From Dictyostelium discoideum (Eukaryota), in assembly GCA_000004695.1 (NCBI GenBank), contig CM000152.2, positions 4,192,001 through 4,256,000 of the forward strand: a DNA stretch of 64,000 nucleotides, given 5' to 3'. Position numbers and translations under genes: made by a program. The notes beneath the pieces are model-generated. The model was not told where the DNA came from, made no database searches, and saw only the letters and a list, made by a program, of their open reading frames with translations. Below, piece by piece: positions 2,901-12,779 of the stretch; position 1 is the first letter of the stretch, and each line of letters opens with the position of its first letter.

Positions 2901-5900
2901 TTAAGCTATTTTATTTGTTTTCATTTGAATTGATTTCTCAAAAGATTTCTTTTGTTTAGTTTTAACGAAATTATATGTAACAGAAATTCCAATAACTGCA
3001 GCAAAACCTACAGCACCAATGATAATACCAGCCAATTGAGCAGATGATAAACCACCACCAGATTTTGAATTACACTTTGAATTACTTGAATCAGAGATAG
3101 GTAGGATATCTAATAATACCGAGAAATCTGGATCAATGATTGAGGAAACAGAATAATGTGGTATATCAATACCAATGAATGATTGTGATTTTGTTGGTGT
3201 TTTAATTGCATTCATTTCATTATCTAAAATTGAATTTGAAATTGAAACTATTCTATTATCAATAATACCTCTTTTTAATAATCTACCATAAAGTGAATGT
3301 TGATCAATTTGAATTTTAATATAATTTGAATCATCACCTGTACTGGTATCACCAAATTCATTAGCTGAACAAATTGAATCATCATTTGAATTAGTTTCAA
3401 GTTGTGCTGACATTACTAATTGTAATCTATTTAATGCTGAATTAAAATTATATTTTGAAAGTTCAATTGTGTATTTAACAGATGAAGGATTCATTTTAAT
3501 TGTTTGTTGAGCAAAAGTAATATTAGATTCTTTATCAAACCATTGTAATGTTACATTAACAATAGTTTGATTATTAATATCATCACCAATTGTTGTTATA
3601 TATTGTTGAGTTTTTTCATTAATTTCTGTTGAAACCCATTTTTCAAATCTATGGGTTTTATAAACTGAATCATCAAATGTAATTTCTCTAATTGCAACTA
3701 AATTAATAATTGATTTAAATGTTATTAATGATATTTCACCATCATCATCATCATTCGATGGAATGTCAATAGATAAGTTTGGTTCAGTAGAGTTTGGCTT
3801 TGGTTGTGGTATAGTTATTACAATAGAACTACAGTCAAGCCCAATATATGGAGATATACAAAAACATCCAGTTGTAACGCATTTACCTTTATTTGGTCCA
3901 CCGCAATTATTTTTACATTCTTGTGGTGAATTTGTTGGTAAAATTGGAGATTGTGTTGGTGGTTCAGTTACTGGTCTTCTTATAGTTGGAATAGCAATCC
4001 ATGGTTTAATTGTATATTCATTTGATAAAATATTACCTTGTGATTTTTTTAATAGAATTGTATATGATCCAGTTGTATATTTAATATTTGAAATTAAGAT
4101 TGCACTTGGATAAATTTTAACTATTTGTTCAGTTTTATTATTTGTTGGTAATTGTGGTGGTGGAGTTTGGATTTTTGAGTAAATAACATTAACACTATCA
4201 ACTCCATCAAAACATCTTCCATAAATCCATAAATCACCACCATTGCTATTCATTTCACTATTTCCAGTAATTAATGGGGTAATATTGGAATAATTTACAT
4301 TAATAGTAAATGGAAAACCGAGTTGACCCAAGTCATATGATGAATAGCCTCTGAAATAATTATAACTATTTACTATACCATAAACTGAAACTATAATTCC
4401 ATATGGATAACCAAAACCAATTGGTAAATCAATTTCACATTTATATGGAACGTTCGTCATATTGGTTGAGAATTTTGTAGCAGTATAAACTCTAGATTTA
4501 CATTCCAATATATCTAAACCAACACTGCTTAAATATACAATTGGATTTGAGTTTGGTACAATAGAACTTTCCAAATCACCAGTTATAAAGGTGATAGTTA
4601 TTTTTCTATCAACGGAGCCAACGTCAATAGATTTAGGTGAAATAGTAAACTCTTTCAATTCTGGAGGAGTGGTATCAAAATCTGGTTCAGATTCGCAAAC
4701 GGAAGTAATAGTATAAATATCAAAATCATCCAAGAAATTAATGAAAGGATTAAATGAATCGTATAAATCTGGAATTCTATCATTACTATATCTTGAATAA
4801 TGACCTATTGTGTCATTTAAAAATACATCAGTTATTACATATGATTGACTTTTACATGGAGAGTATATTAAAAAACCTATTTCATACATTCCAAAAAATG
4901 AATCACCTGAAATTAAATCTGAAGTAGTAAATTCGATTTCATACAAGGATGAGTCAATCAAACCTCTTACAGTAATTTTACCATATTCAAATCCATTATG
5001 TAAATCTTCAATTTCAATATTCCAACCAATAAATTTCCCATAAGTATCTTCTGATGAAATTACATTATAAGTTTTTTGAATTGTTTTAAATATTGGGCCA
5101 TAACTATCCATATCTTTTTATTATTATTTTTTTTTTAAATAAAAATAATTAGAAAATAATTTATTTAAAATTATCCTACAAATAAATAAATAAATTTATA
5201 TACATACTATGTGAAGTTACATTTAATTGAAAAGATTTTGGAAATATTGAATGATCAATTATAAAGTTTTTATATGAAAAACCATAGGTTAATTCACCAT
5301 GATATATATTTGCATCAACATAAAAATCAGATTGGTATAATTGGATTTCTGAATTCCAAACTACTGGAAATGATTTAAGATTATTCTGTAATAATGATTT
5401 CTTTTGGGTAACAAAATTTAATGGTAAATCGATTGGTACTTTATCTTTAAAATTAAAGTAAACTCTATTTGCAACAATTGTATTTGTAACATTAATACTT
5501 TCCAATTCATATGATAATTCATTAAAATTTTCAAATAGTTCCACTAATTTTTTAAAAAATTATTGTTAATAAAACCATATGATTTATTATTATTATTATT
5601 AATGTTATTGTTATTATTATTATTATTGTTATTGTTATTATTATTATTATTATTATTATTATTATTATTATTATTATTATTATTATTATTATTATTATTA
5701 TTATTATTATTATTATTATTATTATTATTATTTTTATTAATTTTGAAAAACTCACCTGATGGAAATGATTGATTTGAAATATAAATAAATGGAATATTAA
5801 TGAATTGGTTTGCTTGATCAAATATACCAAATAATAGTTCAGAATTTAAAATTGAATTTTCAACAATAATTTCAAATATACCATTATATATATCCCCTGT

Positions 5901-10900: not shown

Positions 10901-12779
10901 TAAATCCATTTTTACTTGTAAATTTAATTCTTAAAATAAACAAAGAACCTTCCAATTGTTCTAATTCTATTAATTGAAAAATTGGATTATCTGTCCAGTC
11001 ATCTAAATAATAATAATAATAATAATAAAAAATAATAAATAATAATAATAATAGTTAATAAAATAAAACAAATATCAAAAATAATAAATAAATAATAAAT
11101 AATAATATTTACTTGGAGTTTCTGAAACAATTTGTATTGGATTGGCCTCATCAATTATTAAATTTGGTGAACCTAAACCACCTGATTCTGGAGTTAATAT
11201 TTCAATTGAATAATAATAATTACTATTTTGACCAGATTTAAAGCCAAATGGAGATTTGGTTTTTACTTGATAACTACCATATAATCCAATATTCATGGTT
11301 TTAAAAGTATAATTAGCGCTGACCATATTATATCCTACTAATACAGTGCCACCTAAATTTAAATAATCATTTGTATCCATATTTTTAATTCCATTCAATT
11401 CGATCTCTATTCAATAATAATAATAAAAAATAAAAAAATAATTAGTTTTTACTTTTCCAGGATATTTAAATATATAAATATAAATACTTACCAGATAAAT
11501 AATTAAAATCAAAGGCAATACCACCTTGATTTACTAATGATGGTCCATCTTGTGATAAAAATTGAAGAGAACTACTAAATTGATAGGAATAAAGATTTGC
11601 TGGTAAATGGTAAATGTATGTTGTTGAACTTGTATTTCCATAAATTGGGAACAAATATGACATTTTGATGTTTCCAAAATTAATAGAATTTATTATCGAA
11701 CCATATGCTGATTGAAGTGGTAATAAATTTGAAACAAATGTAACTGCACTACCTAAATTTAAACCACTTATTACAACATTATTAAAATCATTTGGCCATA
11801 ATAAATAATCTGTAATTTTATCATTATTCTCTAAATAGAATTTATTATTATTATTATTTATTATTATTTATTTATTTATTTATTTATTTATTTACTTACG
11901 TGTTAATAAACTATTTGAAAGGGTAAACGAATGAGAAGTTGAAGAATTTCCAATTTGAAATAAAATAATAAATGGTTGTGTAACATCTGGGGTTAAAGTA
12001 GAAATATTAACTTTGAAATAATCTGATTTTGAATCTTCTTCATTTACTACAAGTTTACAATCATAATTTGGACAAGTGAGCCCATAAAAAAAGTATTGGG
12101 CCTTTCCAATTGTGCTATTTAATCCACTAATTTTAATTAATGCTTGATAATTACCAATAAATTCTGTAGGATATACCTTTCCAACTAATGTAATATTTAT
12201 ATCTTCAATTTTAGGTTCTATATATATATATTTATTTATTTATTTTTTTTTTTTTTTTTTTTTTTTTTTTTTTTTTTTTTTTTTTTTTATTTTTTTTTTT
12301 TTTTTTTTTTTTTTTAGATTTAATTATTGTAAAAAATAAAAAAAAGAATAAAATAAAAATTTAGTAAATTATTAATAATAAAAATTAATAATAAATAACA
12401 TACCTAAACAAGTATATGGAAATTCCAAAATGGTTTGATTTAAATTATTATCAATTACTTTTGCAGTATCTGATCCAAATGGGAAACCGGATCCATTAGG
12501 AATTAAGGAATAGATAATAGTTGTTGAGTTTAGGACTTCGTATGGGTTTGGATAAAGTTGATTGGCATATGAAAAGATATAATCCCCACTGATCGAATCA
12601 AAATTTAAATTAAAATCTGTTACCTTGAAATAAAATGTAAATGAGCAACCAAGAAGTGAACCATATCTAATATTACCTTGTGGTGAATAATTTAATTTTT
12701 CTATGATATAACCATTTGTTTTATTCAAAACTATAAATAAAAATAAAAATAAAAATAATAAAAAAATTTTAATATTCAT
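7950..12779 (-). CDS. Giant type-I membrane glycoprotein, paralogue 2 (multi-exon), arranged in tandem with paralogue 1. Exon 1 is 12779..12404 and exon 2 approximately 12217..11902. Middle exons lie within ORFs 11466..11663, 11075..11398 and 10647..10955. The penultimate exon ends at 10238 and the final exon is 10126..7950.
   Basis: Signal peptide MNIKIFLLFLFLFLFIVLNKTNG at 12779; a GTATGT donor follows ..CLG at 12403. Exon 2 ends ..LLTR|GTAAGT (donor 11901). The penultimate exon ends ..NVISKS + a|GTATGT (donor 10237), and the intron ends in AAAAAG at 10127. The junction reads in phase into ATGGATTATTAT (MDYYGPIFKK) of ORF 7950..10124. The identical phase-1 GTATGT/AAAAAG-at intron in both paralogues supports the merged models. 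The C-terminal part (EGF module, ..ITFKSIINLVAIREITFDDSVYK.., TM AQLAGIIIGAVGFAAVI) is nearly identical to paralogue 1. Confidence 0.6.
12241..12318. repeat. Poly(dT) tract ~75 nt, with an interruption, in an intron of paralogue 2. Similar tracts of 40-60 nt lie at 7690-7745 (A), 13741-13785 (T), 18421-18470 (T), 19697-19744 (A) and 25081-25160 (T).
   Basis: Directly visible homopolymer runs. Confidence 0.85.

Follow-up and report, generated by a model that had tools for sequence, protein, structure and literature searches.

Why should two neighbouring genes that have diverged nearly to saturation along most of their length remain almost identical over one 609-bp stretch? The question is raised by a tandem pair on chromosome 3 of Dictyostelium discoideum AX4, within 64,000 nucleotides of dictyostelid DNA of ~22% G+C (contig CM000152.2, positions 4,192,001 to 4,256,000; the whole of this stretch is called the window). 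We refer to the two genes, which lie head-to-tail, as A and B:

2901-7620, reverse strand: gene A
7950-12779, reverse strand: gene B

The evidence described here argues that recurrent interlocus gene conversion keeps this tract near-identical in an old and otherwise diverged tandem pair, a reading to which we assign a probability of about 0.9. The presence of two tandem, same-strand paralogues in 2901-12779 had been proposed in a first-pass annotation of the DNA, and was confirmed by splice-resolved gene models. To obtain these, we searched for all GT..AG pairs that join open frames without stops, and one GC donor was added by eye. Both genes had seven exons and six introns at homologous positions. 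All introns were of phase 1, with a length of 69-212 nt and an A+T content of 82-96%; the differing exon counts suggested earlier were not borne out.

7620-7290, 7203-6889, 6795-6496, 6421-6137, 6064-5756, 5543-5208 and 5113-2901, reverse strand: the seven exons of gene A, encoding 1362 aa
12779-12404, 12217-11900, 11830-11492, 11406-11113, 11002-10667, 10570-10238 and 10126-7950, reverse strand: the seven exons of gene B, encoding 1390 aa

When the two genes were compared in a codon-aware alignment, protein identity was 54% overall, and 37, 27, 47, 26, 36, 55 and 68% in exons 1 to 7, respectively. The N-terminal exons can thus be aligned along their length (26-47% in exons 1-5 and 55% in exon 6), and not only at isolated motifs, as had first been thought. 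Nucleotide identity was ~50-70% over most of the genes and rose to 95-100% within A 3713-3113, so that the profile showed a sharp island and not a uniform level. The last exons had been described as ~99% identical. This is correct in substance for a block that precedes the transmembrane region, but the whole exons were only 76% identical at the DNA level, with ~27% of the exon at ~98%. We could resolve the following elements within the last exon:

3730-3770, reverse strand: 5' border of the tract, an indel-prone linker of poly-Asp (A) or poly-Asn (B) between the epidermal growth factor (EGF)-like module and the supersandwich domain
A 3121-3729, corresponding to B 8176-8784, reverse strand: main homogenised tract, 609 bp with 11 mismatches (98.2% identity) and a constant offset of 5055
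A 3075-3120 and B 8130-8175, reverse strand: hypervariable linker between the islands, 46 bp, 20/46 identical (43%)
A 2998-3074, corresponding to B 8053-8129, reverse strand: second island, 77 bp, 76/77 identical in AX4

In its core (3596-3121), the main tract was 98.9% identical, with 5 mismatches over 476 bp, and the longest stretch of the tract without any mismatch measured 202 bp. The remainder of the last exon had a mismatch rate of 32.6%; at that rate, the probability of finding 11 or fewer mismatches in 609 positions is 2e-85. The limits given at first for the tract were nearly right in A (3121-3760, of which 3730-3760 is in fact the indel-rich linker), while those in B (8140-8790) were shifted by ~36 bp. 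The tract encodes LITFKSI...DPDFSVLLD, which is the ComC supersandwich domain, and the Pfam ComC_SSD match (residues 463-666 of the open reading frame (ORF), or 3725-3114) coincided with it nearly to the codon. The second island encodes the juxtamembrane Cys and a Gly-rich segment, as well as the initial two thirds of the transmembrane helix. Between the two islands, the linker encodes ILPISDSSNSK in A and NSKSDGGNNNI in B, and beyond the second island, the region of the cytoplasmic tail was 57% identical between A and B. A DNA comparison revealed no further copy of the tract in the window, and none in the comC gene at 57 kb.

We further compared the locus among related genomes, locating it in each through the neighbouring gene REXO4. 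Five genomes carried the A and B pair (AX4, two further D. discoideum and two D. cf. discoideum). In these five, A and B were 0.966-0.984 identical in the tract and 0.64-0.66 upstream of it, while identity between orthologues was 0.92-0.98 along the whole last exon. An alignment of 12 sequences placed the borders of both islands at the same positions in all five genomes. In the second island, A and B were 91-97% identical in the other four genomes, and the paralogues shared species-specific states. The 46-bp linker was orthologue-specific in all genomes, being 95-100% identical for each orthologue among the D. discoideum strains.

Synonymous divergence (dS) and the ratio of nonsynonymous to synonymous divergence (dN/dS) were estimated by the Nei-Gojobori method. 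In the tract, dS between A and B was 0.033 in AX4 and 0.059 in cf235; elsewhere in the last exon it was 0.80-0.91 (upstream), 0.50 (EGF/linker) and 0.65 (downstream). Only 4 synonymous differences between A and B fell in the tract, as against 111 upstream. Between orthologues, dS in the tract was 0.14 for D. cf. discoideum, 0.25 for D. citrinum and 0.36 for D. dimigraforme. These values were close to the upstream ones for D. cf. discoideum and D. citrinum, and lower for D. dimigraforme (0.36 vs 0.60). As the A-B dS of 0.03-0.06 is smaller than the orthologue dS of 0.14, the two tract copies within a genome are younger than the split between the species.

Could the same island arise without any exchange of DNA, solely through purifying selection on the supersandwich domain? 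The domain is indeed the most constrained part of the protein, with a dN/dS of 0.10-0.28. However, the synonymous sites of the tract were homogenised as well, dS between orthologues was normal there, and the single-copy gene of D. citrinum was 89-90% identical in the tract. Purifying selection acting alone is excluded by this combination, in which the synonymous sites are homogenised between paralogues and yet are not frozen between orthologues, and we give it hardly any weight.

Site patterns, for which AX4 was set against D. cf. discoideum and D. citrinum served as the outgroup, pointed in the same direction as the dS values. In the tract, a single site grouped the paralogues by orthology, while 14 grouped them by species; of these 14, the derived state lay in D. 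discoideum at 9 and in D. cf. discoideum at 4, and one site was unpolarised. Outside the tract, the ratio of species to orthology sites in the last exon was 0:273 upstream, 0:34 in the EGF/linker part and 2:47 downstream, or 2:354 in total (Fisher's test against 14:1, p=2e-22). Neighbour-joining trees with bootstrap gave the same contrast. In the tree of the tract, A was joined to B of the same genome, with a bootstrap of 99% and 97% for the two D. cf. discoideum strains and 65% for AX4, while in the upstream tree the A and B clades were reciprocally monophyletic (99-100%), and the D. citrinum gene fell within the A clade. Since derived states common to both paralogues are found in each lineage, conversion appears to have occurred repeatedly, and in both lineages after their split.

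The tract tree also bears on a simpler history, in which the 3' segment was converted once, or re-duplicated in part, before D. discoideum and D. cf. discoideum split, and was exchanged no more thereafter. All ten A and B tract sequences formed one clade that excluded D. citrinum (100% bootstrap), as this history would have it, and the homogenisation is therefore at least partly older than the split. Such an event, however, does not account for the 14 species-pattern sites with derived states in each lineage, for a within-genome dS far below that of orthologues over the same tract, or for the pairing of A with B by genome in both D. cf. discoideum strains (97-99% bootstrap). We regard it as very improbable. 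The original suggestion of a recent gene conversion in the 3' patch thus stands as far as conversion is concerned, on the strength of the dS values and site patterns, and needs to be amended from one recent event to a recurrent one. The other suggestion, a single unequal crossover, does not fit, since both flanks of the patch stay orthologue-specific.

We also evaluated exon 6, which is 73% identical at the DNA level between A and B, as a candidate for an older conversion. It contained 0 species-grouping and 67 orthology-grouping sites, and exchange after speciation was rejected for this exon.

One observation touches on the direction of transfer. At five sites gene A of AX4 alone had the state of the D. 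citrinum single-copy gene, and because this state is kept only there, it hints at some B-to-A transfer elsewhere; no overall direction could be assigned. Among the three D. discoideum genomes, at least one extra patch (A 3831-3800) may have been converted in some strains only: it was of the B type in the two other strains and not in AX4, nor was it of this type in D. cf. discoideum.

Near-identical repeats are a classic source of assembly errors, and one paralogue's reads might have been used to build or correct the other during assembly or polishing. Short-read mapping across the tgr paralogues has been reported to be misleading in D. discoideum (10.1101/2025.10.22.684067). Against such an artefact, the mosaic and its borders were the same in the AX4 reference, which is Sanger-based, as in five long-read assemblies made independently. 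One of the latter reproduced window positions 1-12102 with zero mismatches and three gaps in homopolymer length. In addition, each copy had private differences inside the tract, and 609 bp is far below the length of a read. An artefact is therefore the least probable of the explanations considered, and we practically dismiss it.

Several points weigh against recurrent conversion, or at least limit how it can be read. Conversion was inferred throughout from patterns in the sequence, and the models of A and B were likewise checked at the sequence level. The pairing of A and B of AX4 in the tract tree had a bootstrap of only 65%. In the two wild D. discoideum strains, A-A and B-B were closer to each other than A was to B within the same genome, and conversion would therefore have to come in episodes and not proceed continuously. 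That a divergent linker of 46 bp has persisted between the two homogenised islands requires either separate short events or selection against conversion of the linker. Finally, the tract was not enriched in G+C at third codon positions (GC3), although this is not an argument against conversion itself. The signature of GC-biased conversion is known from many eukaryotes; it was sought here, and none was evident, GC3 being 0.054-0.059 in the tract vs 0.07-0.13 in the flanks. The GC3 of the tract was also lower than that of the single-copy orthologues in D. citrinum (0.097) and D. dimigraforme (0.158), the opposite of what a GC bias would lead one to expect.

How might recurrent conversion maintain such an island? 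A break in one copy would be repaired from the paralogue 5 kb away, with a short patch being copied and no crossover. Both the 609-bp supersandwich stretch and the separate 77-bp juxtamembrane/transmembrane stretch would undergo such conversion. The high identity there would permit strand invasion and heteroduplex formation, which would make the island self-perpetuating. The flanks, which are 55-80% identical and edged by indel-prone, low-complexity linkers, would escape and keep diverging, and the poly-Asp/poly-Asn and Ser/Gly/Asn linkers at the borders would halt the extension of the heteroduplex. The borders could thus be set by an identity threshold, by selection, or by both.

The possibility that selection, and not the mechanics of recombination only, sets the borders deserves to be weighed, though we consider it rather unlikely. 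Here an identical membrane-proximal module would be needed in both proteins, for example because it docks on a shared membrane partner or because A and B pair with each other, and the outer domains, the linker and the tails would be selected to differ. The agreement of the tract, to within about a codon, with the ComC_SSD domain of Pfam, its constancy in five genomes of two species, and the survival of an orthologue-specific linker between converted islands are all consistent with this. Between orthologues, dN/dS was lowest in the tract (0.10-0.13, vs 0.26-0.41 upstream). The best fold matches of the predicted domain were to two membrane-proximal supersandwiches, namely the GLMP luminal domain (GLMP being a transporter-bound accessory subunit) and the P1 domain of YidC. 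However, even in the absence of selection, the extension of a heteroduplex would be stopped by the indel-prone linkers, and the shared partner or interaction is hypothetical. A TM-score of ~0.56 at 9-10% sequence identity is weak ground for assigning a function, and a single gene suffices in D. citrinum and D. dimigraforme. A still more doubtful extension is that the tract, together with the start of the transmembrane helix, forms a selected 'common stalk' that is kept by conversion, while the outer domains, linker and tails diverge freely. If this were true, DDB_G0281207 and its neighbour would be a two-headed receptor pair, and the conserved borders would be a selected property and no by-product.

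The proteins encoded by the two genes are, by their domain content, ComC-like type I single-pass surface proteins, although not ComC proper. Each is predicted to comprise a signal peptide, a series of beta-sandwich domains, a single EGF-like module, the membrane-proximal supersandwich, a transmembrane helix and a short tail. Pfam placed DUF7035, DUF7034, the EGF-like DUF7949 and the ComC supersandwich, in this order, in both A and B, all above the cut-off. The supersandwich domain (PF22933) scored 54.1-54.6 bits in A and 52.8-54.3 bits in B, with a cut-off of 24, and other proteins related to A and B mostly had the same set of domains. DUF7743 was matched by Pfam on the raw ORF pieces over exon 5 and was not reported for the merged proteins. 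Pfam gave no TIG match at E<=1 in merged A or B, so that the IPT/TIG domains anticipated by the first-pass annotation were not recovered, and no match to the Beta-sand_ComC domain was seen in either; each protein had one EGF-like module. A hydropathy scan predicted a single transmembrane helix in A (1317-1339) and in B (1342-1367), followed by a tail of ~23 aa. A hydrophobic N terminus, predicted to be a signal peptide, was clear in B and could be recognised by eye in A (MYLIKLLFLLIFLF).

Structural models were used for two of the domains. The supersandwich model had a predicted local distance difference test (pLDDT) score of 83, and its best matches in the PDB were the GLMP luminal domain, then YidC P1 and the supersandwiches of glycosidases. 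The domain between DUF7034 and the EGF module was modelled as a seven-strand sandwich (pLDDT also 83); its PDB matches were weak (E 1e-3 to 1e-2) and included the IPT-type dimerisation domains of RelB/NF-kB, CGTase domain D and generic immunoglobulin (Ig)-like folds, so that only a weak resemblance to Ig-like/E-set folds is suggested. From family membership only, A and B may be cell-surface adhesion or signalling receptors.

The seven-exon models of A and B are supported as merged genes. The B model was the same, residue for residue, as DDB_G0281207 (XP_640885.1, Q54U91), annotated as an 'EGF-like domain-containing protein'. No database record had the exact 1362-aa product of the A model; the span 2901-7620 was, however, a called gene in GCA_054883475.1, the assembly that matches the window, and orthologous genes were called at 1377-1440 aa in seven assemblies. 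All donors and acceptors of A were kept in five further genomes. Differences in the length of its introns among genomes were not multiples of three, and gap columns made up 14-27% of introns vs 0.6-4% of exons. The 724-aa and 736-aa ORFs are therefore the last exons and not genes, since the spliced models are conserved and, for B, equal to Q54U91. This agrees with the first-pass annotation, which had denied them the status of stand-alone genes, and the 724-aa ORF with its internal Met was never a called gene on record. A word-index protein search was insensitive here: with 2904-5111 (the 736-aa ORF) as the query, the best match was 43% identical, even though Q54U91 was present, as were orthologues with ~90% DNA identity, and a negative result from such a search does not indicate absence.

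Three introns of gene A deserve separate mention:

5114-5207, reverse strand: last intron of A, phase 1, GTATGT...AAAAAG; its counterpart in B is 10127-10237
6422-6495, reverse strand: intron 3 of A, GC-AG with donor GCAAGT, 71-76 nt among genomes
5544-5755, reverse strand: intron 5 of A, with the borders GTGAGT...TTAG kept and an (AAT)n microsatellite inside

The last intron had the same borders in A and B (a/GTATGTAT ... ATAAAAAG/at ATG, with slashes at the splice sites, phase 1), just as had been described at the outset (a/GTATGT ... AAAAAG/at ATG); the interiors were unlike, at 94 nt in A and 111 nt in B. In D. citrinum the donor of intron 3 was GTAAGT, while all five genomes of D. discoideum and D. 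cf. discoideum had GC there. As the GC donor was kept in all five, with a GTAAGT counterpart in the outgroup, we read intron 3 as a genuine, rare GC-AG intron that arose in their common ancestor. This donor may lie behind the differing automated models of A (1389-1440 aa across assemblies). The length of intron 5 was 212, 147, 158, 85, 156 and 213 nt in the genomes compared, and its (AAT)n repeat is length-polymorphic, as this span of 85-213 nt indicates. The raw 300-aa ORF 5544-6446 reads this repeat as poly-Asn, and also runs through intron 4 (6136-6065), which is free of stops.

In the spacer between the genes (7621-7949; 330 bp, from the B stop to the A start), most of the sequence consisted of long poly(T)/poly(A) runs. 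Between the 5' flanks of the two genes, matches were confined to low-complexity sequence, and the two promoters are therefore probably unrelated.

How old is the pair? Both D. citrinum and D. dimigraforme had one A-like gene together with short, decayed B fragments, which in D. dimigraforme included pieces of B exon 1, of the exon 6/7 border, of the EGF module and of the supersandwich domain. D. firmibasis had only degenerate related fragments between REXO4 and the next gene. The decayed fragments were found as follows:

L003, 17912-18030
L007, 17429-17684 and 18005-18204
L009, 11622-12437

Since D. citrinum and D. dimigraforme keep an A-like gene and relics of B, the duplication is old, and B appears to have been lost repeatedly. 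The single gene of D. citrinum was also considered as a possible fusion by unequal crossover. This was rejected, as the gene is A-like along the last exon and the B relics lie separately, upstream. Another D. dimigraforme locus, that of P0002, was set aside because it carries another member of the family at another place.

Within D. discoideum, AX4 was compared with two other assemblies. Identity was 94.2-94.3% for A, 95.7-96.0% for B and 95.2-98.7% for five flanking genes, so that A and B diverged between strains ~1.5-3 times as much as their neighbours, which does not sustain the proposed analogy with hyper-polymorphic surface families. Hyper-polymorphism was accordingly rejected as the cause of the strain differences in A and B, as the flanking genes (Gaa1, a phosphodiesterase, REXO4 and two 278-aa genes) were themselves 1.3-4.8% diverged between AX4 and the two assemblies, GCA_054859385.1 and GCA_054859355.1. 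The species-wide mean diversity of D. discoideum is 0.003 (10.1101/2025.10.22.684067), and the divergence of the flanking genes is an order of magnitude above this. Either the region is unusually diverse, or these two strains belong to a deep lineage.

The window also holds the following features:

1116-2215: REXO4, XP_640882, the neighbour of the pair
28204-34569, forward strand: a large hybrid histidine kinase with CHASE, PAS, HisKA, HATPase and receiver domains
48788-48858 (forward strand) and 55160-55230 (reverse strand): two tRNA-Gly(TCC) genes, inverted relative to each other and separated by 6.3 kb
57046-60597, forward strand: the comC orthologue, with further exons upstream, 45 kb from the A/B pair

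The called counterpart of the kinase in the matching assembly had 2150 aa, and we take it to resemble DhkA. The single-exon ORF of BRF1 in the window had an exact match in a D. discoideum chromosome record, and the DNA upstream of it in that record matched the window except in the lengths of homopolymers.

The presence of comC in the same window allows a direct comparison with A and B. The ORF 57046-60597 contains EGF repeats of the teneurin type, TIG and the ComC-specific beta-sandwiches, and it shares 94% identity with P0013, which represents the D. discoideum cluster. ComC shares with A and B the C-terminal EGF-like DUF7949, the ComC supersandwich and the single transmembrane helix. It differs in having a long EGF array of the teneurin type, TIG and the ComC-specific beta-sandwiches, where A and B have DUF7743 (on the exon-5 pieces), DUF7035, DUF7034 and one EGF-like module. 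The supersandwich of the A/B-related proteins was ~25-28% identical at the protein level to that of the ComC gene. As the tract has no DNA match in comC, ComC lies outside the conversion group. We found nothing specific in the literature on ComC or on conversion in the A/B family. The luminal domain of GLMP (PDB 6nyq, 8r8q) is similarly a membrane-proximal beta-supersandwich beside a single transmembrane helix, as is predicted for A and B (E=2.5e-5 to 3.4e-5, TM-score 0.56-0.57). However, sequence identity to GLMP and YidC P1 was 9-10%, and the supersandwiches of the glycosidase type matched almost equally well. The match would thus represent a resemblance of fold only, with neither homology nor function implied.

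Interlocus conversion is well understood in principle, and the case of A and B changes no concept. It does offer a clean, domain-precise example of concerted evolution in D. discoideum with an unusually complete comparative series: two species have the pair, two others a single gene with relics, and in a fifth the genes have decayed. On the practical side, trees or dates obtained from the C-terminal domain of A and B would be misleading, and short reads will be assigned to the wrong copy. With 98% identity over 609 bp and a distance of 5 kb between them, the direct repeats offer a substrate for deletion and duplication by unequal recombination, and structural variation at this locus can therefore be predicted. 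An identical domain that stands beside a divergent linker is also a natural test case for mechanical versus selective limits on conversion tracts.

Partial concerted evolution of tandem duplicates is known from the primate gamma-globin and opsin genes, from RHD/RHCE and from genes of the major histocompatibility complex. Taken together, we consider A and B to be a standard case of this kind, in a gene pair that has no experimental characterisation. As in textbook interlocus conversion, a short tract (0.1-1 kb) is near-identical in old paralogues and homogenised at synonymous sites, sequences group by species inside it and by orthology outside, and the borders are sharp where identity falls. 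Unlike the textbook cases, the A/B tract shows no GC3 enrichment, corresponds to one protein domain with the same borders in two species, and is one of two islands that are split by an unrelated 46-bp linker.

A parallel may be found in the same organism. Interlocus conversion has been reported for the paralogues tgrB1, tgrB2 and tgrB-ps, whose intermingling in trees is taken as a signature of such conversion or of recombination (10.1101/2025.10.22.684067). Like A and B, these are tandem or clustered genes for single-pass surface proteins. However, the protein families differ (IPT/TIG for tgr, ComC-like for A and B), and the variability of A and B exceeds that of the adjacent genes only modestly, unlike that of the tgr genes. 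In the tgr family, whose recognition genes are hyper-polymorphic, conversion has been discussed as generating diversity, whereas in A and B it would homogenise a conserved domain.

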